Assembly (NCBI GenBank): GCA_029038705.1
Contig: GCA_029038705.1_4346.1
From: a phage
Reading direction: 5' to 3' (one strand)
DNA: 44,263 nucleotides
A program made the translations under genes and the position numbers. The notes below the pieces were generated by a model that was given only the letters and a program-made list of their open reading frames with translations, searched no databases and was not told the DNA's origin. Shown piece after piece: positions 29,214 to 40,502 of this stretch; the first letter of the stretch is position 1, and each line of letters begins with the position of its first letter.

Positions 29214-29248
29214 GTAAGAAAAGGCCCCTTTCGGGGCCTTAGTTTTAT
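29214..29248. terminator. Bidirectional terminator between the plus-strand cassette and the major tail gene
   Basis: AAGGCCCC-TTTC-GGGGCCTT with T-rich flanks on both strands. Confidence 0.6.
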
Positions 29249-30417
29249 GCGTAACTAATACGTTGAATTACGATAGACGACTGATACTGGTTGCCTGTGG
29301 ACTGCCCTTCTATACTTTGGGTAATTGACTCAGGCCCGCCAATCTCAGGTGTAACCGCCGTGAGTTCTGCGCGTTTCAAACTAAAAGACATAGCCCCGTT
29401 TACCCCCGCCAGAATAGAGTTAATCTCCACCTGCTGTTCGTTGATAAACTTCTGAATCATAGCCATGTCGTACAGCTTGCCGGAGATGGAGAAGGTGTTA
29501 GCCGCGCGGCTACGTTCCACAAACGCTACGTTAGTGTTGCCGAGTTCGAACTGCGCCGACGCGCTGTTGTCGTTGGTGATGGTCAGGCTGTCGCAACGCA
29601 ACGGCGTAGAACCGTCGAACACAGAAACATCGACCGAGGAGAATGGCTCGGCACCAAACGTAACAGAGGAGAAATCAGAACCAGACGGCTGCGTGGTGAG
29701 AATCTCCTGACTGCGACCGATGAACGGGAAGCTGCCAGTTACCATCGCGTTAACAGCCTGTTCGATGGTAAAACCAGAAACTTCCACGCCTTTGGTTAAC
29801 GTGTACGCGTCAGTACCGCCGCACTGGCCTTTGTACCAGGTAAGGATAGAGAACGTCTTACACGCGTTACCGGTTTCCAACGTGTCGCCAGTTTTAGCCT
29901 TACTAGTTTTTGTCTCGGTGGTCAGGGTGTGTTGGATGCCCGCACCAGTAACAACCGTAGCCTTTACTGCAGTAACAATAAATGGTTTTGCGTTATCGCC
30001 TGTTAAATCGGTAAACGCAATCAGGTCGCCTACCCCAACTCCGTCAGTGATAAAACTGCCGGTAGCGCGTGTGAACGTCTTGCCCGCGGGTGCGACGGTA
30101 ATCGATAGTCCTGACAGGGAAACGCCGGATTGCCACGTAGAGCCTAAAGCCCCGGCTAACCAGTCGTCCTGACTTTTAGAGCTAAGCTCAATAGCGTATT
30201 CTCCGCTAACCTGCTTGTTACCGGTGCGGATGGATGTGGTTTCTCGGCTGCCGTCAAGTTCGTTGGAGGTCAGCGTGTCGCGGGTAATGGCAGGAACGCC
30301 GCCCGTGTTGCGCAACGGCGACCATACCGGGTTAGCCGGTGTTACGCCCGGGGTAGTTTCTGCCACATAGAATTGCGCAGTATTCGCGCCCTTAAAAGGA
30401 GTTGTAGCCATATTCAC
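29245..30417 (-). CDS. Major tail (tube) protein
   Basis: 390 aa, Thr/Ser/Gly-rich; positioned between connector genes and chaperones. Confidence 0.6.
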   Translation of the reverse strand: MNMATTPFKGANTAQFYVAETTPGVTPANPVWSPLRNTGGVPAITRDTLTSNELDGSRETTSIRTGNKQVSGEYAIELSSKSQDDWLAGALGSTWQSGVSLSGLSITVAPAGKTFTRATGSFITDGVGVGDLIAFTDLTGDNAKPFIVTAVKATVVTGAGIQHTLTTETKTSKAKTGDTLETGNACKTFSILTWYKGQCGGTDAYTLTKGVEVSGFTIEQAVNAMVTGSFPFIGRSQEILTTQPSGSDFSSVTFGAEPFSSVDVSVFDGSTPLRCDSLTITNDNSASAQFELGNTNVAFVERSRAANTFSISGKLYDMAMIQKFINEQQVEINSILAGVNGAMSFSLKRAELTAVTPEIGGPESITQSIEGQSTGNQYQSSIVIQRISYA

Positions 30418-30830
30418 AGCCTCTTGGTGAATGCAATAAAGTTAATTGACAATGGCCGTTTGGCCCATCCGTTTTCTACAATCAGCGGCCCCAGGCTTAC
30501 CGATTGAACCTCGGCGCAGATGTCGTTACGCGAAAATGACTTACCTGCTTTAAACACCGTGTTAAGTAAGTCTGCCATTTTATTGATTGGCGCGCTACCT
30601 TTCACCGATGCGTAGTTAATGTCTACCTGATAAATACCAGAGCGTTGTTCCGTGAAGAACAAATCCGCCTGCTCGGTATCCGCAAGTAACATGTAGCTCG
30701 CCAGATACGGCGTATCGGTTGACGTCGGCGCGTCGATGTTTTCAAGCGCAACCTTGATGCCGTTGGCGGTTCCGAAGGCTACCAGCGGCGCATCAAACGC
30801 TTTTGTTAAGTCCTCAAAGTAGCCCATCAT
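30414..30830 (-). CDS. Tail completion / tail terminator-like protein
   Basis: 138 aa; position immediately upstream of the major tail gene. Confidence 0.4.
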   Translation of the reverse strand: MMGYFEDLTKAFDAPLVAFGTANGIKVALENIDAPTSTDTPYLASYMLLADTEQADLFFTEQRSGIYQVDINYASVKGSAPINKMADLLNTVFKAGKSFSRNDICAEVQSVSLGPLIVENGWAKRPLSINFIAFTKRL

Positions 30831-31222
30831 TTCACCTTGTTGGCTTCTTCGTTAATGAGTTGCTGGAAGCGGGACACATTAGCCCTGACAACCCCGGCAG
30901 GGGCCTGTTGCGACCAGCCATACTCCAGCCGTTGTGCATACGGCAGATTATTTGTCAGCGTGAACTCGCGCCAGTCGGCGGCTTTCAGTACGAAACTCGT
31001 GGCGTTTCCGGTTGCCGTGTTTCCTGATTTATCCCTAGCGTCCGTAATCCCGGAAGCAGGTGTACCCCCAGACGCCATCCAGTTCATACGGAATCGGCCT
31101 GTATCTACCGGACTCGCCTTTATGATAGCGGAAAACAGCTTGATAGACACCTGACGCATCACCTTCTCAGGGTTCTTCTTCGCCTTTTCCACGAACTTAG
31201 ATACATCAAGCGTGAAACTCAT
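30827..31222 (-). CDS. Head-tail connector protein (HK97 gp10-like)
   Basis: 131 aa; PVDTGRFRMNW resembles the DTGxLRxS motif of the gp10 family. Confidence 0.5.
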   Translation of the reverse strand: MSFTLDVSKFVEKAKKNPEKVMRQVSIKLFSAIIKASPVDTGRFRMNWMASGGTPASGITDARDKSGNTATGNATSFVLKAADWREFTLTNNLPYAQRLEYGWSQQAPAGVVRANVSRFQQLINEEANKVK

Positions 31223-31632
31223 TTTCTCACCTGGATAAAGTAGGCCACGACATCATCATTAACCATCTTCTTTTCAATGGCTACGACAGACCATTGCTCA
31301 CCGCTGAATTGTACCTTGTCTGCCATCTTAGGAACGACGCTGTAATCGGCTTTGACAATCATGTCACCGGCCCGAATAGTCGTACCGTTAACCAGCCCCG
31401 CGTTTACCGGAACCGGAACCGCTTTCAACGGCAACACTTCATCCGCAGACCAGACGTACTCACCGAGAACTTCATCCCACACTTTCGAGCCAGCGCGAAT
31501 CAGAGATACCGTGCTACCGAATTTGGTTAGAAGGCGTGTACCAACGCCTTGCATACGTTTACTGAAAGCGGTGCTCATTACGCTGCCTCCAGTCTCGAGA
31601 TAACCAGTAATGCGGATGGTGCTGTACCCCAT
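31219..31632 (-). CDS. Head-tail joining / head closure protein (probable)
   Basis: 137 aa; gene order. Confidence 0.4.
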   Translation of the reverse strand: MGYSTIRITGYLETGGSVMSTAFSKRMQGVGTRLLTKFGSTVSLIRAGSKVWDEVLGEYVWSADEVLPLKAVPVPVNAGLVNGTTIRAGDMIVKADYSVVPKMADKVQFSGEQWSVVAIEKKMVNDDVVAYFIQVRK

Positions 31633-32192
31633 GCGGTTACAGTAGCCTGTTGCGGGTATACGCCACCGTAGTTGCTCCCGGCGCTATCTCGCATAATCTG
31701 AACAGCAAACGTCTGGCCTGCGGCGGGGTTAATAACGACGCGAGATTCAATCGGGATTGTGGTGTCTGCGCTTACCAGTTTCGTGGCGGCGGGCGAGCCG
31801 TACTGAGCGCCGTTTACTAAAATACGTGATAGAAGGATGGATGTCCCACTAGCGCCAGTACGCCCCGCCTGTAACTTGATGCGAACGGCGTAGTTACCCG
31901 CGGTGTTGAATGTAACAAGCCCCGCGGCATTAATCATTACCGGGTTAGACGCGCTTCCCTGGGCAGCACCGAAAGTTATTTGCAATGCTGTACCCACTGC
32001 GGATGGTGCTCGTGCTACTGTCGACGCGGCACGGAGAACTTCAACCTCTTTAACCCCCGGAGTGGCATAGATAGGCGAGTCGGCCATCTGTGTCATTACC
32101 TCGCGCAACGCTGCGGGGGTAATAAGCCCAGTGGTATTATCGGGGAGATTTGCGCCGATAAGAGTAAACATCTCTGATTTAGTCTTAGCCAT
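31578..32192 (-). CDS. Hypothetical structural protein
   Basis: 204 aa; overlaps the downstream gene by about 55 nt. Confidence 0.45.
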   Translation of the reverse strand: MAKTKSEMFTLIGANLPDNTTGLITPAALREVMTQMADSPIYATPGVKEVEVLRAASTVARAPSAVGTALQITFGAAQGSASNPVMINAAGLVTFNTAGNYAVRIKLQAGRTGASGTSILLSRILVNGAQYGSPAATKLVSADTTIPIESRVVINPAAGQTFAVQIMRDSAGSNYGGVYPQQATVTAWGTAPSALLVISRLEAA

Positions 32193-32194
32193 TT

Positions 32195-32707
32195 TTAACC
32201 CCGGTACACATTAAATGAGAAGCCGTTGTTAAGACCGCCGCACAGTAACGGACGTAGGGCGTCGTCCGCAGCTGTTATCGCGGTTGTAGCGCCACTGCTG
32301 CCGTTGTTGAAGTAGGTCACTGTCACCGCGCCCTCGACACGCTCTGTCTGCACGGAGCGACCATCTGAGTTAGCCCGCACTTCCGTACCTGCGCCATATG
32401 TAACCGCAGCGATTACCTGCGCAAGAATCACCTGTTTTGGGATGGCATTGTTCGATACAGGGAACCCGTTCAATGTTACGCCGGTGCGTGGGTACGCAAG
32501 AGACTGTTCAGCGGATACGCGACGACCGCACATCTGCGGTTCTGCAAGCCCGACATAAGTAACACCATTACGCAAGGCCACCTCGGCGGCAGTATCATCC
32601 GCGGGCAACTCCAGACCATAATTAGCTGCTAACGCGCGGGCGTCAGCCAGACTAATGTAACTGTCGGCATTCTGGACTATTGCCCCCGTTTCCACGATTA
32701 GCGGCAT
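32195..32707 (-). CDS. Hypothetical structural protein
   Basis: 170 aa ORF. Confidence 0.45.
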   Translation of the reverse strand: MPLIVETGAIVQNADSYISLADARALAANYGLELPADDTAAEVALRNGVTYVGLAEPQMCGRRVSAEQSLAYPRTGVTLNGFPVSNNAIPKQVILAQVIAAVTYGAGTEVRANSDGRSVQTERVEGAVTVTYFNNGSSGATTAITAADDALRPLLCGGLNNGFSFNVYRG

Positions 32708-32710
32708 AAA

Positions 32711-32890
32711 TTATTCCTCTGACTTACGGCGACGGCGCTTAGCACCACCGCCGTTGTTGTGCGCTTCTTCGTTGTCTGGTTGAGTCGCAACCAGTTCATC
32801 CGCGTCTACAACACCGCGAACAGGCATCACCTGACCATCAACAACATCAACGTGAGTGTACTTTTCACGGATTACATAATTATCTGCCAT
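32711..32890 (-). CDS. Hypothetical small protein with basic C-terminus
   Basis: 59 aa (MADNYVIREKYTHVD...KRRRRKSEE). Confidence 0.3.
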   Translation of the reverse strand: MADNYVIREKYTHVDVVDGQVMPVRGVVDADELVATQPDNEEAHNNGGGAKRRRRKSEE

Positions 32891-32926
32891 GACCTTTCCT
32901 TATTATGGCCCCGAAGGGCCGTTGTA

Positions 32927-33271
32927 TTAAGACACAGTTGCTACAGTGCTGCTGGAGATAATATTACCATACGCATCGTGAACAACCACTTTATACGTGC
33001 CGGAGTCGGTAGTAGCGACAGTAGTGGACTTGGTGTACGTAGCTGCGGTAGCGCCGGCGATGGCGTTGTTATTCTTATACCACTGGTAAGAATATGGCTC
33101 CAGACCGCCAGTTACCGCAACGGCGAGAGTCAATGCGGCGGGTGCGGTAACCTCGGTAGTAGCGTTAAGTGGGGTAGAAAAAGACGCAGGAGAAATAGTC
33201 TCCATGTCAATCTTAGCGCCCGGGGCGTCAGCGGAGACGCCGGTGATGCGTCGTTTCAATACGTCTGCCAT
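32927..33271 (-). CDS. Ig-like domain protein (candidate capsid decoration)
   Basis: 114 aa; YSYQWYKNN...SGTYKVVVHDAYGN is the bacterial Ig-like pattern; directly downstream of the major capsid gene. Confidence 0.5.
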   Translation of the reverse strand: MADVLKRRITGVSADAPGAKIDMETISPASFSTPLNATTEVTAPAALTLAVAVTGGLEPYSYQWYKNNNAIAGATAATYTKSTTVATTDSGTYKVVVHDAYGNIISSSTVATVS

Positions 33272-33332
33272 TGAGGGATCCTCTTAGTAAATGAAAAGAG
33301 GGACCGAAGTCCCTCTCGATTATAGCTTAACC

Positions 33333-34382
33333 TTAAGCACCTACACCAGTTACCAGGAAGGCAATAGGCACATGCTTACGTTCAACCACACGGTTCCAGT
33401 TGGAGGCGTTCGCCAGGTCCTGCCAGGAAGCGGAGCGCGGGGTAGTCTCGGTGCCGTTGCCAGTGATTACTGCGCTGGTGAAGCTGTAGCCCAGTGGGTG
33501 CAGTAACCAGGTCTTACGGGTCCACAAGGTTTCGACACCGCCACCATTGCCGCGGGACTCTTCGCGCTCATATGCCAGCGGATTTTTCGGGTTACCTTCG
33601 CCGTAACCGATAGCGCCGTTGCCGAAGATGATGGAGATAAACTTACGGCTCGGGCCTGTACCAACTACCGTCATGCTGTCATCAACAATCACGCGGTAGC
33701 CCTGGTAGGTGGCGAACAGGGTATCGTTGTCAGCGTTTTTGATGAAGTCAATAAGCTGCTGCTTACGGGCCTGCGCATAAACGAAGCTGTGCATCGCGAT
33801 AGCGCCCAGCACTTCACCGCCGTTGCCCATCAGCGCATCACCCATAGTCTGGGTAGCGTCGATGAACGCGCCCGCGTCGAAGCCTTTAGTAGCGGACACG
33901 TCGATCACCATGTCGTTCTGCTCGTGGTATGCGTCGGTAGCGGCCACGTTGTCATTGTACAGACCGAGCGCGGTGGCAATCAGACGGCGTTGTGCCTGGC
34001 GCTGCCAGAAGTTATCCAGGCGAGAAGCTACTGATTGCAGCGGGTTCTGGCTGGTCAGTTCGACAGTCAGGTCCGCCTGGCCGAAACCTTCGTTCAGGTA
34101 TGCAACGCGCGCCATCATCTCACCGGTCCGCACGTTACGCGGGGTAGCGATATCCTGGTATACGTCGTTCGAGTAGTTTGGCTCGATAGAGGTATCAATC
34201 GCTTTCCAGAAAGGAATATTAGCGATGTTGGACGGGCCGCGGGCAATCTCGGCAGCGTATGGGGTCGGGGTCAGAATACCAGACTGGAAGAACGCGGTTT
34301 TTTCTACCGGGTCCTCGGTCATATAAGACGCCAGGACCGGGATGTTGCCAGTTACGATATCGCCGATAGTAGTAATTGCCAT
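33333..34382 (-). CDS. Major capsid protein
   Basis: 349 aa; position after the scaffold gene; strong RBS. Fold not verified. Confidence 0.7.
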   Translation of the reverse strand: MAITTIGDIVTGNIPVLASYMTEDPVEKTAFFQSGILTPTPYAAEIARGPSNIANIPFWKAIDTSIEPNYSNDVYQDIATPRNVRTGEMMARVAYLNEGFGQADLTVELTSQNPLQSVASRLDNFWQRQAQRRLIATALGLYNDNVAATDAYHEQNDMVIDVSATKGFDAGAFIDATQTMGDALMGNGGEVLGAIAMHSFVYAQARKQQLIDFIKNADNDTLFATYQGYRVIVDDSMTVVGTGPSRKFISIIFGNGAIGYGEGNPKNPLAYEREESRGNGGGVETLWTRKTWLLHPLGYSFTSAVITGNGTETTPRSASWQDLANASNWNRVVERKHVPIAFLVTGVGA

Positions 34383-34384
34383 TA

Positions 34385-35140
34385 TTATTTCCTCAGGGCT
34401 TTAAGTTGCCGTTCAAATTCGGCAGGGTTCGATTTATACAGGGCTAAACGCTCTGCTTCACTCATGTCTTTAAACGCTGGTGCGGCCCCGCCGCCTTTGC
34501 CACCGGAAGCCCCGCCGCCGGAAGCTGCATTTGCTTTAATCAAATGCGAAAACGCTTTGTGTTCACGCAAATATTTACGGAACTGTTCCGGGTCAGTTGT
34601 GATTACATTGCCATCTGCGCCGACAAACTTAGTAACCACATCATCGCCTTCGAACTCAGTCTTAACGAACGGTGCAAGAATGTCTACTGCTTCAGGGGTG
34701 ATAAAGTCGCCCGCGAAAGAGCCTAACACCGCTTTACGTTCGCTGCCGAGGATGCGCTCTGCCATTTTGGAGATGCGACCATCTTTCTCAGCTAACACCG
34801 GGTCATACTGGCTACGAATCGTCTTTTCGAACTCGTCCATCTTACCAGCGGCTTTTAACGCCTCCTGGTGGGCACGCTGCCGTTCTTCTTCGGCCTCTTT
34901 TGCTTTACGAGCGGCTTCTTTCTTCTCCGCCAGCAACGCTTCCTGATTGGCCTTAAGCCCGGCTACTTCTTTCTCAATCAGCGCCTGAACTTCTTCAGCG
35001 GTGAACATTTTTGGCGCGTCACCGCCACCAGCTTTATCTTCTGCCCCAGCTTCTTCCTGGAACGGATAACGTAAAAAACGATTCATAGTCAGTATGTCCC
35101 CTGGACGTTGGAACCCGGGCCACCCGGATTTACATGTCAA
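34385..35140 (-). CDS. Scaffolding protein
   Basis: Coiled-coil, Ala/Glu/Lys-rich (EALLAEKKEAARKAKEAEEERQRAHQEALKAAGK). Real start may be the ATG at about 35086, which has GGGGA upstream. Confidence 0.55.
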   Translation of the reverse strand: MTCKSGWPGFQRPGDILTMNRFLRYPFQEEAGAEDKAGGGDAPKMFTAEEVQALIEKEVAGLKANQEALLAEKKEAARKAKEAEEERQRAHQEALKAAGKMDEFEKTIRSQYDPVLAEKDGRISKMAERILGSERKAVLGSFAGDFITPEAVDILAPFVKTEFEGDDVVTKFVGADGNVITTDPEQFRKYLREHKAFSHLIKANAASGGGASGGKGGGAAPAFKDMSEAERLALYKSNPAEFERQLKALRK

Positions 35141-35168
35141 GAATAAATTATTCCAACATGCAAGGCAA

Positions 35169-35432
35169 CTATTCCAGAATATTCCTCACGTAGTCCTGCA
35201 ACATGAACACTTTCAGCCTCAGTTGCCGTACGCATTCGGCGTTCTGAACGTCGATAGCCAAATCCTCGTCAGCGTCGTTACTTGGCGGAGCCAGTTTGCA
35301 CGGCGGCTGCATCATTGTCGTATCCGGGGATGGAATTAGCGTTTGCGACGGCGCTGGACTTGAGCAGGACGCGAGCATCGTCGAAAGTGCACACGCTGCG
35401 ACCAGGCGTTTTAATGTACTTAACGACTTCAC
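35169..35432 (-). CDS. Outer-membrane spanin (Rz1-like lipoprotein)
   Basis: 87 aa; signal peptide with lipobox LASC (MKSLSTLKRLVAACALSTMLASC), Pro-rich mature part; starts inside the i-spanin gene in another frame and extends past its stop. Confidence 0.7.
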   Translation of the reverse strand: MKSLSTLKRLVAACALSTMLASCSSPAPSQTLIPSPDTTMMQPPCKLAPPSNDADEDLAIDVQNAECVRQLRLKVFMLQDYVRNILE

Positions 35433-35664
35433 GGGTAATTACCTCTGATTTCGTCTTGCCTTCGTTGTCAGCGGCTGCGGCCTTTGATTCGTCCTGCTGC
35501 TGCCGTTGTGTTTTCTTCGCCAACTCAGCCTGTGCTTTCTGCTGTTGCTGAGAAACGAGATTCGCCCGGCCTTCGTTCCAGCCGCTGCGGTACTGGTAGA
35601 TGCCGTGTGCGTAAGCCAGGATGACGAAACATGCTCCTGCTACGACAGTTGCTTTAAGATTCAT
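35278..35664 (-). CDS. Inner-membrane spanin (Rz-like)
   Basis: 128 aa; N-terminal TM helix (ATVVAGACFVILAYA) then Gln/Ala/Lys-rich coiled coil; GGAGA RBS. Confidence 0.7.
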   Translation of the reverse strand: MNLKATVVAGACFVILAYAHGIYQYRSGWNEGRANLVSQQQQKAQAELAKKTQRQQQDESKAAAADNEGKTKSEVITREVVKYIKTPGRSVCTFDDARVLLKSSAVANANSIPGYDNDAAAVQTGSAK

Positions 35665-35915
35665 GTTTCTCCTTTCTCGATAAGTAAAGCCCCGCTTTAA
35701 GGCGGGGCGCTAGTCCTTATCATTTAAACATAGAAACGGCGTAATCTCAGTAAACCCGTTACTTTTTACACGAGCAATAGAGTATGGCCCTTCCGAACGC
35801 GTCAGCGTAACTACACTCATGACTTACGTCCCGCTCCGTTACCTGCCCGCGCCGCGGTCGCTTGTTCATACTTCACAAGCTCAGGTGGAGCTTAGCACAT
35901 TTTTAGTGAAAAGTC

Positions 35916-35931
35916 AACTATTCGAATAGTT
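35916..35931. repeat. Perfect 16 bp palindrome AACTATTCGAATAGTT
   Basis: Read directly. Shares the GAATAGTT half-site with the promoter element; GGAATAA is repeated twice just downstream (about 35954-35969). Confidence 0.6.
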
Positions 35932-35978
35932 TATTCCTACATTTACAATTTGGTGGAATAACTGGAATAATCACAGGC

Positions 35979-36003
35979 ATTAAAAAGCCCCTTTCGGGGC
36001 CTA
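35979..36003 (-). terminator. Rho-independent terminator
   Basis: Hairpin GCCCC-TTTC-GGGGC; minus strand is followed by UUUUUAA. Confidence 0.5.
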
Positions 36004-36006
36004 AGT

Positions 36007-36468
36007 TTATTCTGGCTTAGTGACCTTCGCCGCTTTGCTGACAGCCTCTACACCATCGGCATCAGTAACTTTAACGAAGTATTCCCCAACAGAATTAACC
36101 GTCAGATACAAAGCCTCTTCCGGGGCGTTAACCACTTCCTTCCCGTCTTTGTACCAGGTCAGCGCATATGGTGCTTTGCCCGCCTTAACTTCGACAGCGA
36201 TATTTGCGCTGCCGTCTGCCAGTTCAGCGTCCTGCGGTTGTACGGAGAAATACACATCACCAGCATCCGCCAGGTACTGAATCTCATAAAGCATGCCCGC
36301 CGCCGGTAGCGCAATACCGGTTTTATCTGCAAACGGCATATCGTCTACGGGCGCACCCAGTACACTTTCATCTTCAATAAATACCACGTTCTCGCCGGAG
36401 CCAGGCACACGGGCGTACTGGACTACGCGACGCGACGGTACATCAGTTACTTTGAAAAAGCCCATCAT
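36007..36468 (-). CDS. Ig-like domain protein
   Basis: 153 aa; ALTWYKDGKEV...VGEYFVKVTDADG is an Ig-like pattern. Confidence 0.5.
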   Translation of the reverse strand: MMGFFKVTDVPSRRVVQYARVPGSGENVVFIEDESVLGAPVDDMPFADKTGIALPAAGMLYEIQYLADAGDVYFSVQPQDAELADGSANIAVEVKAGKAPYALTWYKDGKEVVNAPEEALYLTVNSVGEYFVKVTDADGVEAVSKAAKVTKPE

Positions 36469-37544
36469 TATTCCCCTTTCAGATAATCAGCAACACGTTT
36501 ATCGAGTTCCGCCATCTGCTTAAGCGTGAGCGGATTCCCGAAACCATCTACAGATATTACGCGAAACTCTTCCGGCGATATACCGCTGTTACGGAAAATC
36601 TTACCCCGCACCGGGCCTAGAGCCTGGTCCTGAAACCATGCCGGTTGTTGTTTCAGGAACTCGTAGTAAGTGGTGTCTGCGCTTACCTGAGTACCTCCGT
36701 CCGCACCCTTAGCCGCGCGTTTTGCGCCTTTATCCAGGAAGTCGAACTCCGAACTGATTACCGGAGCCGTGCACGACCGGCAGTTCGGATGGGCGGGGGG
36801 CATCGGCCCTTTACCGATTTCCCACGTCATCCCATCTCTGGCCTTGCAAACGGCTGAGGTCCTAGAATCAAGAGTAGACACCCACTCATATTTCTCGATA
36901 ATGTCGTCGTTCTGGCGGTACGTCTCATTACGGGCTTCGTTGGACACGTGGGACAGCGCGGTGCGGATTACTGTAGCAGCGTGTTTCTCTGATACGTCAG
37001 CCAGGCCGCCTTTACCAACTACTTCTTTAACAATCTGCCGTGTGGTTTGGCCTTGCACAAAGCCCATCTTAACGCCAGTTACAAGGCGCGCGACCTCCGC
37101 TTCACCCCAGCCTGACATCAGCTTGGTGAAGTCAACGGGCTTGTCACTTAGCGACAGAGGTTGAAACTCGGCAGCGGCCCACACCTGCTCGGCGGTAGGT
37201 GTAACAAATTCCGCGTTAACGTTGGTGGTAAGTGTCTTTACGTTCCACTCAGCCTCATATGCCGCCAGTTCCTTAAGGTCTTCTGTCAGCTTTGTTTGCC
37301 AGTCAACTGTAAGTCCAGCCAGTGCTTCTTCAAGGTCGCGTAACAGTTTATTCAGCCGGGCGGTGCTGCGGCCATCATCGCCGAATAACAGCACCTGCCG
37401 TTTGATTTCGTCCCGCATCTCCTGAATGAACGGTGCTAGGTCTTTCACCTCACCGGATGCAGTACGTTGCAGCCATATCTGGTGGCTAATTAGAGATGTA
37501 AGTAAGCTCATAAGCCCTCCTGTAGTATCGACAGTGTAACGCAT
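36468..37544 (-). CDS. Head morphogenesis protein (Mu F / SPP1 gp7-like)
   Basis: 358 aa; VSTLDSRTSAVCKARDGMTW...PPAHPNCRSCTAPV matches the MuF-family Cys/His motif; position after portal. Confidence 0.7.
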   Translation of the reverse strand: MRYTVDTTGGLMSLLTSLISHQIWLQRTASGEVKDLAPFIQEMRDEIKRQVLLFGDDGRSTARLNKLLRDLEEALAGLTVDWQTKLTEDLKELAAYEAEWNVKTLTTNVNAEFVTPTAEQVWAAAEFQPLSLSDKPVDFTKLMSGWGEAEVARLVTGVKMGFVQGQTTRQIVKEVVGKGGLADVSEKHAATVIRTALSHVSNEARNETYRQNDDIIEKYEWVSTLDSRTSAVCKARDGMTWEIGKGPMPPAHPNCRSCTAPVISSEFDFLDKGAKRAAKGADGGTQVSADTTYYEFLKQQPAWFQDQALGPVRGKIFRNSGISPEEFRVISVDGFGNPLTLKQMAELDKRVADYLKGE

Positions 37545-37647
37545 AAAAATAATATCTCAGGGAATTTTTTCTTATTGCGGTGCGATGTCTTGCTGTGGTA
37601 CATGTATATACACAATCTTTATACTAGAAGAAGCGGAGGGTATTTTA

Positions 37648-38997
37648 ATGGGGTCCAGACGTTTAACTGAAGAAGATGTAAACCTGAGACTGGCGTCACG
37701 GGGTATAGTAGTAATTGAGTATGCAGGCCACTCTAAACTTAAGTCTAAATTCCGCTGCCGTAGTGGCCATGTGTGGGAGACAAAGGCCAATACCGTCCTA
37801 AACGGTCATGGTTGCCCCCAATGCTACGCTGCGGAAAAACGGGCGAAAGTAACAGAGTGGCCTAATGGGGTTGAATGCCTTAATTACGCAGGTGCTGTAA
37901 GTGGGAAATCAACGTTCAGATGTAAATGCGGGTTCGTCTGGTCCGCTACCGGCAGCGACATTTTAAGGGGTAAAAGTCATTGCCCGAATTGCAGCACTAA
38001 CAGAAAAAGGCTCGAGATCGGAGAAATAGAGGAAAGGTTACGCGGCACTGGTTTTGAACTGGTGTCTTATTCAGGGGATATCTGCCGTGCGCCATCGACA
38101 CTGAGGTGTCAAAAAGGCCATGAATGGGCCTCTACGCTTGGTAACATTTTTCAGGGTAGAGGGTGCCCGCGGTGCGCGTCGTTCGGGCGTAGTAAAGTGG
38201 AGGATGAAGTCTGTGAATTTCTCGATAGCATGGGGGTGGAATATCATCGGAATGATAGAAGTCTTATCCACCCAAGAGAGATAGATATTTTAATACCGCA
38301 ACATAATCTGGCGATAGAAATAAACGGCCTGTACTGGCACAGTGAAGCTGCCGGGAAGGGGAGAAAGTATCACATGGAGAAAAGAGTCGCCGTTGAGGAA
38401 AGAGGGTTCAGGCTCCTGTCAATAAGGGATGAGCTATGGCTGCATAAAAAAGAAATAATAAAGAAAATAATCGGCCATTCCGTCGGCGTCTCTTCTTTGC
38501 GAGTTTTCGCCCGCAAATGCCATGTAAAAGAGATTAACAAAATATGTGCAGAGCGTTTCCTGGAGGAGAACCACATTCAAGGATTCCGTAACTCGACGAG
38601 GTATATCAGCCTCGTTTATGAAGAAAAGATTGTTGCGGTAATGACGCTGACGTGTAGAAAAGGTGAATGGGAGCTTGTGCGGTACGCTACGTCGTGTTCG
38701 GTGGTAGGCGGGCTGTCGAAGCTATGGGCCTATGCCGTGCGCCGTTATAGCATCACCGACGGTTTTACCTACACTGACCGGGATTTATTTACCGGAGAAT
38801 CATACCTATCAGCGGGGTTTAAAAAGGCTTCTGTGAGATGTGGATTCCGCATCGTCGTAAACAATGCGACTAAAACAGAATCACGGCAAAAATGGAACAA
38901 AGCGCCAGAGGGGCTTACACAGTCGGAATGGTACGCTGCGGAAGGTGTATCCCGCATATGGGATAGCGGACAAGAGAAATTGGTATGGAATAAGTGA
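37648..38997 (+). CDS. Stand-alone nuclease with repeated zinc-ribbon modules and a PD-(D/E)XK-like core (homing-endonuclease-like)
   Basis: Three repeats of a C-x-x-G/C-H...CPxC module (CRSGHVWET..CPQC; CKCGFVWSA..CPNC; CQKGHEWAS..CPRC), then REIDILIP...AIEINGLYWHS. Start is probably the ATG at 37648 (GGAGGG RBS), not 37585. Confidence 0.55.
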   Translation: MGSRRLTEEDVNLRLASRGIVVIEYAGHSKLKSKFRCRSGHVWETKANTVLNGHGCPQCYAAEKRAKVTEWPNGVECLNYAGAVSGKSTFRCKCGFVWSATGSDILRGKSHCPNCSTNRKRLEIGEIEERLRGTGFELVSYSGDICRAPSTLRCQKGHEWASTLGNIFQGRGCPRCASFGRSKVEDEVCEFLDSMGVEYHRNDRSLIHPREIDILIPQHNLAIEINGLYWHSEAAGKGRKYHMEKRVAVEERGFRLLSIRDELWLHKKEIIKKIIGHSVGVSSLRVFARKCHVKEINKICAERFLEENHIQGFRNSTRYISLVYEEKIVAVMTLTCRKGEWELVRYATSCSVVGGLSKLWAYAVRRYSITDGFTYTDRDLFTGESYLSAGFKKASVRCGFRIVVNNATKTESRQKWNKAPEGLTQSEWYAAEGVSRIWDSGQEKLVWNK

Positions 38998-38998
38998 G

Positions 38999-39026
38999 AT
39001 TAAGGCCCCAATAGGGGCCTTAATAT
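38999..39026. terminator. Hairpin terminator between converging genes
   Basis: TAAGGCCCC-AATA-GGGGCCTTA. Confidence 0.5.
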
Positions 39027-40502
39027 TTACTCCTGCTGTTGCTGCTGCGCCGACTGCGGAATCTCCCCCGTCACCTGAGTAACGGCCCCCAACGGCAATG
39101 GTGCATCCTCGATAGCGTTCTGAATGTCTTCATCCTTCCAGTCAGTTACACCCGCCTTGCGCAACGCAGCATAGTAAGCGGTGGCGGGCAGCAAGCCAGC
39201 GTTAATGTCCGCCATCCACTGGGCGCGGTCCTGAGCTGTCATCGGTTGTAGGAAGAACTCCATGTTCAGCTTGAATTCAATCTCTGTGTCTTCGCGCAAC
39301 CCTAGCATCGCCGCTACCCAGCGCAATGCATCGGTATACGCCATGCTTACGTTACGCGCGATTGTTGCCATGACTGACGTATCGGCGCCGCGTTGCAGGC
39401 GGGCGGATTCGGCGGTGATTTGCTGCGTCGGGGTGATAAGCTGCGCGCCAATCTGAATGGCCTGATTCTCTTTATCCAGCATATTCTGTTTGGCGAGGTT
39501 GTTCTCTCCTGCCTGAACAAGAAATGCATTGCCGCCGTAGCCGATGTTATGGCCTGAACGTGACCCCATGCGCACGCCGTGAGGGTTAGCTTCTTTCCAC
39601 TGTTCCATGCTCATGTTCTCACCGGGGGCGATGAACAGAGTTGGCTGGCCTACAACGAAGCTGGATTCCTCATTGTCTGCGCTGTTACGGAAATGTCCGA
39701 TATTAAGCTCAGCCAACGGCAGCAAAGGCGCATCGTCGATAGTAGCGTCGTTGTTGCTTGCACCAATGAACGTGAACGGGATTTTGCCACGTAACTGTTC
39801 GCCGAGTTCCGGGAAGATTTCGATTACTTCACCCTGTGCGCCACCTTCTGCGTCAAAGCGGTAAATGCGCTGACGGTAGCGACCGTCAATCAAATCGAGA
39901 ACGCGGTATTGCTCACCGAACTTTGTTTCGAACTCTGCGCCCGGTTCTGAGTATTCCCATACCTCACGCAATACAACCATCGTCACGCGGTTAACTGAAC
40001 CGACGCGAGTCAGTCGCCAGTTGATGATGTTCTCTGCGGTATAGAAAGCGATGACCGGGTTTAATAACCCCGCGTTCTGCTCTGCCGCCGTTGCCGCGGC
40101 GGTCTCCGGGGCGTCAACCAGCAACCCACCACGGCCCACCGAGTCAATCTCCATCAGCGTGTCCTGCGCGTGCTGCCACAGACCAACACCGGAGCCGTCG
40201 ACATTACGTAACAGGTACTCCAGTTCAGGCGGGATAATCTGCTCGGGGTCTTTGCGCATCACGGACCCAACCATCCCCGCCAGGGTACGTTTAGTAAAGT
40301 TGTAGCAGATAGCGCCGTTCTCGTATTCTTCCTGACGCTGTGCCGCGTAGGTCGGGTCTGGTTCGTTCTTCCCGACGTTGCGCAGGTAACGGATAAGGTC
40401 GCCTTCCAGCGCGTGGCGTACCTTCTGCCATTTATTGAAGTGATGCAGCCATTCCCGGTGTTTAGTCTTAACACCCTGATTCTGACCGTTCATAGTTAAC
40501 AT
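39027..40502 (-). CDS. Portal protein
   Basis: 491 aa, immediately downstream of TerL; acidic Gln-rich C-terminus. Assigned by size and synteny. Confidence 0.65.
   Translation of the reverse strand: MLTMNGQNQGVKTKHREWLHHFNKWQKVRHALEGDLIRYLRNVGKNEPDPTYAAQRQEEYENGAICYNFTKRTLAGMVGSVMRKDPEQIIPPELEYLLRNVDGSGVGLWQHAQDTLMEIDSVGRGGLLVDAPETAAATAAEQNAGLLNPVIAFYTAENIINWRLTRVGSVNRVTMVVLREVWEYSEPGAEFETKFGEQYRVLDLIDGRYRQRIYRFDAEGGAQGEVIEIFPELGEQLRGKIPFTFIGASNNDATIDDAPLLPLAELNIGHFRNSADNEESSFVVGQPTLFIAPGENMSMEQWKEANPHGVRMGSRSGHNIGYGGNAFLVQAGENNLAKQNMLDKENQAIQIGAQLITPTQQITAESARLQRGADTSVMATIARNVSMAYTDALRWVAAMLGLREDTEIEFKLNMEFFLQPMTAQDRAQWMADINAGLLPATAYYAALRKAGVTDWKDEDIQNAIEDAPLPLGAVTQVTGEIPQSAQQQQQE

Follow-up and report, generated by a model that had tools for sequence, protein, structure and literature searches.

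A siphophage genome that encodes two small proteins with Ig-like domains, one beside the major capsid gene and one beside a MuF-like gene, raises the question of whether both are parts of the virion and, if so, to which component each is attached. We addressed this question in a 44,263-nt phage sequence (the window). The genome is that of a Kagunavirus-type (Guernseyvirinae) siphophage of E. coli, with ~97% identity to Escherichia phage BUCT825 over the region of the two genes, here termed Ig1 and Ig2. The explanation that we favour, with some reservation, is that both are small non-enzymatic virion accessory proteins, Ig1 being a capsid decoration and Ig2 residing on a component that is independent of the capsid type.

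Gene arrangement and expression signals

Both genes are on the minus strand, as are the other features described in this section. The Ig1 gene (32927..33271; 114 aa) is located 61 nt downstream of the major capsid protein gene (33333..34382; 349 aa), the position of a decoration protein, as an earlier note on this sequence had described. A strong Shine-Dalgarno (SD) sequence, AAGAGG, lies 8 nt upstream of its ATG. The capsid protein, the presumed partner of Ig1, is homologous to SPP1 gp13, and in both phages a small auxiliary head gene lies beside the capsid gene. The SPP1 auxiliary protein, gp12, is a collagen-like trimer at the hexamer centres and is encoded upstream of gp13, whereas Ig1 is Ig-like, is encoded downstream of the capsid gene, and has no sequence relationship to gp12. 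A terminator-like hairpin with a T-run (33296..33317; 9 pairs in the scan) lies between the capsid gene and Ig1. It is a probable attenuator, and phage Sciku has an annotated 'terminator' at the corresponding site.

The Ig2 gene (36007..36468; 153 aa) lies between the spanins and the MuF-like head morphogenesis gene (36468..37544; PF04233, E 8e-13; phrog_241, E 5e-152), again as described. The MuF stop codon and the Ig2 start codon overlap by one base (TAATG), and Ig2 has a GGGGA SD sequence, an arrangement that points to translational coupling with the MuF-like gene; a second ATG, at 36465, is a possible true start. Six nt past the Ig2 stop codon is an intrinsic-terminator-like hairpin (35982..36001; GGCCCC-GAAA-GGGGCT followed by TTTTT). 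This hairpin, read directly from the sequence and not listed by the consensus terminator scan, is conserved in relatives and probably ends the portal-MuF-Ig2 unit. The two genes had been said to flank the capsid gene block, which is a fair description of gene order; however, they belong to different transcription units, with terminators between them.

Two further candidates at this locus were rejected. The phrog_241 profile has 679 positions, and Ig2 might have been the detached C-terminus of a longer MuF protein, but the extra length corresponds to inteins; intein-containing MuF genes of relatives are described in an abstract on Snoke and in the annotation of fEg-Eco06. The 343-nt spacer after Ig2 gave no Rfam match and a fold z-score of -0.87, arguing against a structured RNA, and the ATG of its 36-codon ORF is lost in BUCT825 and K1H.

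Ig-like domains and N-terminal segments

Ig1 and Ig2 each consist of an N-terminal segment and one Ig-like domain. The domain of Ig1 (residues 36-114; 32930..33166, minus strand) is an Ig-like beta-sandwich with WYK ... DSGTYKV, and that of Ig2 (residues 73-153; 36010..36252, minus strand) is of I-set type with WYKDG ... GEYFV. Specifically, the core motifs, QWYK ... DSGTYKV in Ig1 and TWYK ... SVGEYFV in Ig2, contain the strand C Trp and the strand F tyrosine corner, and their W, G and Y are invariant in the family alignments. The W-Y-K-x-G...Y-x-V pattern attributed to both proteins is exact in Ig2 (W-Y-K-D-G ... G-E-Y-F-V), but Ig1 has W-Y-K-N-N ... G-T-Y-K-V; Cornellvirus orthologues of Ig1 have W-F-K-N-G at the first of these positions. 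Among 267 six-frame stop-to-stop segments of at least 60 aa, a loose form of the motif occurs in Ig1 and Ig2 alone. The two family profiles match each other reciprocally (E 1e-7 and 2e-5), and BLASTP aligns the two proteins over the Ig region with 31% identity (E 8e-6). No further match to the Ig profiles was found among the other ORFs of the window at E < 0.05, and the tail tube protein gene (29245-30417) is a separate gene without a match to them.

The proposed Ig-like domains are borne out by PDB-sequence matches, predicted beta-sandwiches and Foldseek matches. Among solved structures, Ig1 matches the Ig repeats of 9ncf_S (E 3e-26) and of Shigella phage Sf14 gp20 (9c2d_S; E 6e-25) as well as T5 pb10 (8zvi/5lxk; E 1e-13), while Ig2 matches titin I-set domains (E 2e-9) and, weakly, T5 pb10 (E 0.02-0.05). 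Pfam scores fall below the curated cut-offs, with 26.9 bits for Ig_2 (cut-off 27.0) and 23.7 for Ig_3 (cut-off 30) in Ig1, and 23.2 for BiPBP_C (cut-off 26.8) and 15.9 for Ig_3 (cut-off 30) in Ig2; close Ig1 orthologues have precomputed matches to PF13895, PF13927 and PF07679. AlphaFold models place a C-terminal beta-sandwich in both proteins, the Ig1 model with low confidence (mean pLDDT only 62.1; residues 1-18 below 50). The Ig2 model has a mean pLDDT of 72.6, with 76-92 per 10-residue block from residue ~81 and 49-69 in the N-terminal part. Foldseek searches of PDB and BFVD returned Ig-domain matches alone, among them, for Ig2, the Moo19 and N4 capsid decoration proteins, and no informative match for the N-terminal parts. 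The Ig domains of Ig1 and Ig2 also match the major-tail-protein families phrog_158, 853 and 3995 and the Sf11 tail tube protein gp24 (9OCC; E 2e-5 for Ig1, 5.5e-3 for Ig2). Because the same domain type occurs on tail tube proteins, the Ig domain alone is uninformative on head versus tail.

The N-terminal segments are lineage-specific. Ig1 residues 1-35 (33167..33271, minus strand) form a basic (KRR) segment with predicted disorder, presumably an attachment peptide; many of its positions are invariant across Kagunavirus, Jerseyvirus and Cornellvirus, and it matches phrog_4069 only. Ig2 residues 1-72 (36253..36468, minus strand) form a beta-rich domain, hereafter the anchor, which is the most conserved portion of its family. 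A paralogue in phiEap-2 has the same anchor with a different C-terminal domain. An exhaustive phmmer search of 1.84 billion representative proteins with the anchor gave 12 matches, nine from the same phage lineage and three weak and partial (two with other architectures and one an apparently cut phage ORF), and a Pfam search gave none. Among PHROG families, the anchor likewise matches its own alone. No similarity was detectable between the N-terminal parts of Ig1 and Ig2 and the capsid-binding domains of pb10, gp20 and Hoc; all alignments to pb10 and gp20 are confined to the Ig part.

The overall architecture is nevertheless that of known decorations. The domain lengths of Ig2, 72 + 81 residues, are nearly those of pb10 (about 76 + 88 residues). 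Like Ig1 and Ig2, T5 pb10 (PDB 5LXK, 8ZVI) is a small monomer that attaches through its N-terminal part and ends in one Ig-like domain. Unlike pb10, Ig1 has an N-terminal part of only ~35 residues that is predicted to be disordered, and the capsid protein here is SPP1 gp13-like rather than pb8-like as in T5. Sf14 gp20 and T4 Hoc share the Ig-like domain type of Ig1, and all of these proteins are presumed to be dispensable and displayed on the surface. However, Hoc-like proteins have three Ig domains, compared with one in Ig1 and Ig2, and an unrelated capsid-binding domain; T4 Hoc binds through its C-terminus, whereas attachment of Ig1 and Ig2 is presumed to be N-terminal; and the Hoc-like proteins decorate myovirus heads of T=9 or T=13.

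Both proteins belong to established families. Ig1 residues 1-114 align to positions 1-116 of the 116-position phrog_4069 profile (E 1e-49) and Ig2 residues 2-153 to positions 1-152 of the 152-position phrog_3945 profile (E 2.5e-83). Genes of the two families occur in 458 and 489 GenBank phage records, respectively, and PHROG assigns both to 'head and packaging'. Record names vary among Hoc-like head decoration, decoration, tail, fibritin and neck-whisker protein, and 'decoration protein; BLASTp similarity to phage T5 decoration protein' is the wording in the curated Sciku annotation. The names given to Ig2 (Hoc-like, tail, fibritin, neck whiskers) contradict one another, and apparently no cited experiment lies behind them.

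Replacement of the capsid protein in relatives

The capsid protein of the window matches phrog_247 (E 1e-119) and the SPP1 coat protein (PDB 4an5/6r3a; E 6e-42). K1H, phiEap-2 and Henuyfy11N have an alternative, 322-aa-type capsid protein, which is 27% identical to that of the window over partial length, as measured on phiEap-2. These relatives are without Ig1, but Ig2 is kept at 71-91% identity in phages of this kind. Ig1, the 349-aa capsid protein and the 59-aa downstream ORF all lack a match in the whole K1H genome, while portal, MuF, Ig2, adaptor, neck and tail tube proteins are 83-97% identical to those of the window. K1H Ig2 is 91% identical overall and 93% identical in the anchor (5 differences in 72 residues). 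The phiEap-2 genome shows the same pattern within the ~12.4-kb locus compared.

The organism counts of database records agree with this pattern in the main groups. The SPP1-type capsid protein and Ig1 have identical counts (Escherichia 87, Kagunavirus 8 and Raoultella 2 for each), whereas Ig2 has 102 Escherichia records, the sum of these 87 and the 15 in which the capsid protein is of the alternative type. Kagunavirus-named records are not additive, with Ig2 in 9 rather than the expected 8 + 3. Co-inheritance with the capsid gene therefore holds for Ig1 and not for Ig2. The loss of Ig1 upon capsid-protein replacement supports its assignment as a decoration specific to this capsid lattice, although the co-inheritance could reflect mere physical linkage of genes 61 nt apart. 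Retention of Ig2 suggests that the partner of its anchor is not the capsid-protein surface but something else, perhaps portal, neck or tail, and the near-identity of the anchor in K1H argues against a lattice-specific binding site.

Ig1 also contains a divergent island in the region of its Ig-like domain. Positions 33000-33199 have 73-76% nucleotide identity to BUCT825, while the flanking DNA has 94-100%. Omega is 0.11-0.29 for Ig1, compared with 0.03-0.07 for neighbouring genes, so Ig1 is under relaxed but purifying selection. Positive selection was rejected as the cause of the island, in which a dS of 0.70 and an omega of 0.25 indicate imported allelic sequence under purifying selection. Such relaxation, together with an imported island, is as expected for an exposed, dispensable surface domain.

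Proposed location of Ig1 and Ig2 on the virion

The observations above concern gene structure, domains, families, co-inheritance and transcription signals; that the two proteins are in the virion, where they attach, in how many copies, and whether they bind a ligand such as a glycan are matters that we infer. Each protein would attach by a lineage-specific element at its N-terminus and turn a single Ig-like domain outward. For Ig1, the most likely role is capsid decoration of the T5 pb10 or Hoc-like kind, as the homology of its Ig domain to the proven decorations Sf14 gp20 and T5 pb10 and its inheritance with the capsid cassette suggest. Expressed from the late capsid operon, downstream of the attenuating terminator, it would probably bind the SPP1-type capsid lattice, with hexamer centres the most plausible site, through its N-terminal ~35 residues, which are conserved and basic, and display the Ig domain on the head surface. 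Ig2, whose gene closes the terminase-portal-MuF unit, would be co-translated with the low-copy MuF protein and be held by its ~70-residue beta-rich anchor to a virion component independent of the capsid-protein type, which may be the portal vertex, the neck, the tail or a generic capsid feature. A narrower version for Ig2 is tentative and the odds are somewhat against it, namely a low-copy display module that does not decorate the lattice and is seated on the tail, the neck or the portal vertex, or bound to MuF or portal during assembly. It is suggested by the tolerance of the anchor for replacement of the whole capsid protein and by its pairing with a different C-terminal domain in the phiEap-2 paralogue.

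It is a little less probable that both proteins decorate the capsid lattice at two sites of a T=7 shell, e.g. hexamer centres and another quasi-equivalent position. Most database annotations say so, both genes are inside the head morphogenesis cluster, and the PHROG category and the Moo19 and N4 matches of Ig2 point the same way; however, PHROG labels are homology-propagated, Ig2 is elsewhere named tail, fibritin or neck whiskers, its translational coupling is with a low-copy protein and not with the capsid gene, and the protein, anchor included, is almost unchanged in K1H. Attachment of one or both proteins to the tail or neck, supplied in trans as separate small proteins, is unlikely. The Ig/FN3 domains of tail tubes, as in lambda gpV, T5 pb6, SPP1 gp17.1* and Sf11 gp24, are the model for it, but those of the lambda gpV C-terminus and Sf11 gp24 (PDB 9OCC) are covalently part of the tube protein, whereas Ig1 and Ig2 are separate genes. 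Matches to tail-tube families, the many records named 'tail protein' or 'neck whiskers', and the independence of Ig2 from capsid type, with neck and tail proteins conserved alongside, favour this location. Against it, the tail and whisker labels are apparently propagated, with no cited experiment in the records and papers examined, and Ig1 strictly co-occurs with the capsid cassette while tail genes remain 97% identical. We also know of no well-characterised free-standing single-Ig protein that decorates a siphophage tail tube.

We consider it improbable that Ig2 acts outside the mature virion, as an assembly-time factor or an internal ejected protein working with MuF and portal. The tight coupling to MuF and the confinement of the anchor to this phage lineage are consistent with such a role, and no virion evidence for Ig2 was found in the searchable literature. 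Characterised phage Ig-like domains, however, are reportedly on the particle exterior, a finding attributed to Fraser et al. in 2006, and a fixed anchor with an exchangeable C-terminal domain is the pattern of a display module rather than a chaperone. The Sf14 study likewise places characterised phage Ig-like domains outside particles, with gp20 at hexamer centres (PDB 9C2D), and shows that one capsid can carry two different decoration proteins, a precedent for two lattice decorations; in gp20, as in pb10, the capsid-binding domain is N-terminal (PMC11821841).

Returning to the proposal that Ig1 and Ig2 are accessory proteins on different virion components, the searchable literature on Jersey and Kaguna phages held no usable virion proteomics or cryo-EM on either. 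The JSSK01 study identified a capsid band; the only MS study of a relative that we found, on T102, reports 26 proteins, including endolysin. The PDB copy searched contains no solved Guernseyvirinae capsid, and the subfamily is described as structurally uncharacterised (PMC13243795). The suggested weak glycan adherence may apply, by analogy with T4 Hoc and the 'bacteriophage adherence to mucus' model from which the idea is borrowed; the literature found gives precedent only for other phages (PMC12309589 citing Barr 2013; PMC13435897).

Ig-like Hoc-like or decoration families are already annotated in hundreds of related phages, and the finding is real but ordinary; its practical value is modest, and existing concepts are unchallenged. 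Phages of the Guernseyvirinae, both Jersey-like and K1-specific, are in wide use as candidates for biocontrol and therapy, and their particles are structurally unsolved. Knowledge of which small Ig proteins are on the head and which are in other places bears on phage display, immunogenicity and possible mucus adherence. New here is the natural cassette-swap comparison, which yields a cheap testable prediction, namely that Ig1 is capsid-type dependent and Ig2 independent. If the connector location of Ig2 is true, Ig2 would decorate siphophage connectors in trans, as a 'plug-in' of a new kind.

Gene layout and the Ig-like domains

The genome in the window is that of a siphophage of Kagunavirus type (Guernseyvirinae). 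Over 32700-37600 it shares 96.9% identity with Escherichia phage BUCT825, and 487 phage records match this region, the majority from Salmonella Jerseyvirus and E. coli Kagunavirus. On the minus strand, which holds the structural genes, portal (39027-40502) and a MuF-like head morphogenesis protein (36468-37544) are followed by Ig2 (153 aa, 36007-36468), a 343-nt non-coding spacer (35665-36006), i-spanin (35278-35664), o-spanin (35169-35432), scaffold (34385-35140), major capsid protein (349 aa, 33333-34382), Ig1 (114 aa, 32927-33271), a 59-aa ORF and the head-tail adaptor (32195-32707), with neck and tail genes beyond. The sole match of the capsid protein in the PDB is SPP1 gp13 (E 6e-42).

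A 1.5-kb insertion (37513-39038) between the portal and MuF genes carries, on the opposite (+) strand, a 470-aa HNH/homing-endonuclease-like ORF (37585-38997; phrog_559, E 5e-98) with treble-clef zinc fingers and a Vsr/REase-like domain; the junction measures merely ~70-90 nt in the closest relatives BUCT825 and VIPECOTH07. The spanin pair (35169-35664) is embedded within the head morphogenesis cluster, with MuF and Ig2 on one side and scaffold on the other. The holin and endolysin genes of phage K1H are ~33 kb from its spanins, and this separated layout is kept throughout the phage group. Between the adaptor and the neck genes, 31578-32192 (-) encodes a 204-aa phrog_3614 protein, a candidate neck or collar fibre, with weak BclA_C/fibre-like Pfam matches (E about 0.01); its K1H version is cut to the first ~66-75 residues and its phiEap-2 version is full length. 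The overlapping neck/tail-completion ORFs 31219-31632 and 30827-31222 (30827-31632, -) correspond to genes whose K1H and K1ind2 annotation joins two pieces into one product, implying a putative programmed frameshift fusion.

The earlier note assigned the bacterial Ig-like pattern W-Y-K-x-G...Y-x-V to Ig1 and Ig2. Both ORFs exist and each has an Ig-like domain, as indicated by motif, profiles, solved-structure matches and models. The pattern is exact in Ig2 (WYKDG ... GEYFV), but its 'x-G' is not literal in Ig1 (WYKNN ... GTYKV). In a loose form it occurs in two of the 267 six-frame segments of the window, namely Ig1 and Ig2. The Ig1 and Ig2 family profiles detect each other's protein (E 1e-7 and 2e-5) and no further protein in the window; given this reciprocity and the rarity of the motif, the Ig signal is not due to chance. 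BLASTP aligns the two at 31% identity (E 8e-6), and Pfam Ig models score slightly under their curated cut-offs. Ig1 matches the solved Ig-containing chain 9ncf_S (E 3e-26), Sf14 gp20 (9c2d_S, E 6e-25) and T5 pb10 (8zvi, 5lxk; E 1e-13), and Ig2 matches titin I-set domains (E 2e-9). Structure prediction, proposed earlier as a check, agrees: AlphaFold places a C-terminal beta-sandwich in both proteins. Mean pLDDT is 72.6 for Ig2 (from residue ~81 on, blocks of 10 residues score 76-92) and merely 62.1 for Ig1 (residues 1-18 below 50). Foldseek matches are Ig domains, among them the Moo19 and N4 phage capsid decoration proteins.

Ig1 and Ig2 represent two gene families that are widespread and already annotated; tblastn detects them in 458 and 489 phage records, respectively. 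Over its full length Ig1 falls into phrog_4069 (E 1e-49), and Ig2 likewise into phrog_3945 (E 2.5e-83); both families are labelled 'Hoc-like head decoration'. Record names vary among Hoc-like head decoration, (capsid) decoration protein, tail protein, fibritin, neck whiskers and hypothetical. Phage Sciku (2019) has a curated annotation that reads 'decoration protein; BLASTp similarity to phage T5 decoration protein' and also places a terminator after the capsid gene. In view of these labels and the Sciku annotation, the idea of surface-exposed virion proteins is the standard annotation. Experimental localisation of Ig1 or Ig2 was not found in the literature. A 2026 paper terms Guernseyvirinae 'structurally uncharacterized' (PMC13243795); an MS study of JSSK01 identified the capsid band alone, and one of T102 reports 26 proteins.

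Ig1 and the capsid cassette

The main new evidence of this analysis is a natural swap of the capsid cassette. Some members of the phage group (K1H, P/L/G AB-2017, HSE2, Henuyfy11N, phiEap-2, and Serratia, Klebsiella and Hafnia relatives) instead have a 322-aa capsid protein of another kind, which aligns with that of the window along a portion of its length, at only 27% identity (E 1e-4). A tblastn search of the whole K1H genome gave no match for Ig1, the 349-aa capsid protein or the 59-aa ORF. The genes around them are retained, with identities to the window of 83% for portal, 92% for MuF, 91% for Ig2, 94% for i-spanin, 61% for scaffold, 90% for adaptor, 90-97% for neck, and 97% for both tail terminator and tail tube. 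PhiEap-2 and Henuyfy11N have a K1H-like gene order without Ig1.

Co-inheritance was assessed from organism-name-level record counts and three inspected genomes, and by these counts the SPP1-type capsid protein and Ig1 agree for the main groups. Escherichia records number 87 for the capsid protein, 87 for Ig1 and 102 for Ig2, the last comprising the 87 and 15 with the alternative capsid protein. The corresponding counts are 8, 8 and 9 for Kagunavirus-named records, where 8 + 3 with Ig2 would be expected, and 2, 2 and 2 for Raoultella. Serratia has 0 records with Ig1 and 7 with Ig2, and the 3 counted as matching the SPP1-type capsid protein have no Ig1 match. Enterobacter, not listed for this capsid protein, has 0 and 2. 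We read this distribution as placing Ig1 in the capsid cassette, as would be predicted for a lattice-specific decoration, and Ig2 as apparently indifferent to capsid protein type.

Ig1 consists of ~35 conserved N-terminal residues, basic (M-x-D-V-x-K-R-R) and predicted to be disordered, and a single Ig domain. A strong Shine-Dalgarno sequence of its own (AAGAGG, 8 nt upstream) and the location of the gene downstream of a terminator-like hairpin after the capsid gene (33296-33317) would give expression sub-stoichiometric to the capsid protein. Many relatives, including VIPECOTH07 (L001 3085-3384), K1ind2, SETP7 and PhiSTP1, have an extra gene for a ~85-100-aa 'head fiber protein' (phrog_4366, coiled-coil C-terminus) between capsid gene and Ig1, which is missing from the window (33272-33332), BUCT825 and Sciku; thus, the accessory head protein set of the cassette varies.

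The most divergent 200 nt of 30.2-37.5 kb relative to BUCT825 is a sharply bounded island in the middle of the Ig1 gene (33000-33199), with 73-76% nucleotide identity versus 94-100% in adjoining DNA (94-97% in the remaining Ig1 gene, as much as 100% in the capsid gene next to it). Island dS is 0.70 (0-0.12 on either side) and omega 0.25, which shows imported allelic sequence under purifying, not positive, selection. The pattern indicates that alleles were exchanged by recombination inside the Ig domain. Whole-gene omega is higher for Ig1 (0.11-0.29) than for capsid protein, MuF and adaptor (0.03-0.07), in keeping with an exposed accessory domain.

Ig2 and its anchor

Ig2 consists of a ~72-residue beta-rich N-terminal domain, the anchor, followed by a single Ig domain. 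Its ATG and the MuF stop codon share one base, the last of the stop (TAATG), and the Shine-Dalgarno sequence is GGGGA. A GC hairpin with a T-run (35982-36001) lies 6 nt past the Ig2 stop, so Ig2 closes the terminase-portal-MuF unit. From this position, Ig2 is probably made at low, MuF-like levels.

Within the family, conservation is highest in the anchor: 5 of 72 residues differ between the window and K1H, and G3, F4, V7, R14, V15, R20 and V21 are invariant even among distant members. The anchor is restricted to the lineage, with 12 representatives among 1.84 billion proteins, and matched no Pfam family. In phiEap-2, a second gene (L007 6453-7022) directly follows the Ig2 orthologue and has only the ~70-residue anchor in common with it (31% identity, E 8e-11), its C-terminal domain being unrelated (phrog_18016). 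This paralogue is evidence for the anchor as a putative modular attachment element.

The spacer downstream (35665-36006), which is conserved, contains, in order on the minus strand, the Ig2 terminator, repeats with TATTCC (TATTCCAGTTATTCCAC ... GGAATAA), a promoter-like extended -10 site (TTGACT-17-TAAGCT, 35917-35889), and, after ~190 nt, another terminator (35689-35708). Its repeats and promoter-like site are kept as far as Jerseyvirus and phiEap-2. The spacer matched no Rfam family, its RNA fold z-score is -0.87, and its 36-codon ORF has lost the ATG in BUCT825 and K1H. It may serve as a regulated late promoter or give a short transcript.

Proposed roles

Ig1 would be a pb10/Hoc-like capsid decoration, anchored via its N-terminal peptide on the SPP1-type lattice. 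Hexamer centres are the most plausible site, and SPP1 gp12 is one precedent for such decoration. Others are pb10, Hoc and Sf14 gp20 (PMC11821841). Ig2 would be a display module whose conserved anchor binds a component independent of capsid type; candidate sites are the portal vertex, neck, tail or a generic shell feature. The proposal that both are surface-exposed virion proteins finds partial support: it is well backed for Ig1, and Ig2 is a candidate. The accompanying suggestion of weak glycan adherence, like any binding of mucus or host surface by the Ig domains, is drawn purely by analogy with T4 Hoc. Ig2 may be a connector- or tail-proximal plug-in decoration instead of a head-lattice protein, and this placement away from the head lattice is the sole mildly novel reading of the analysis.
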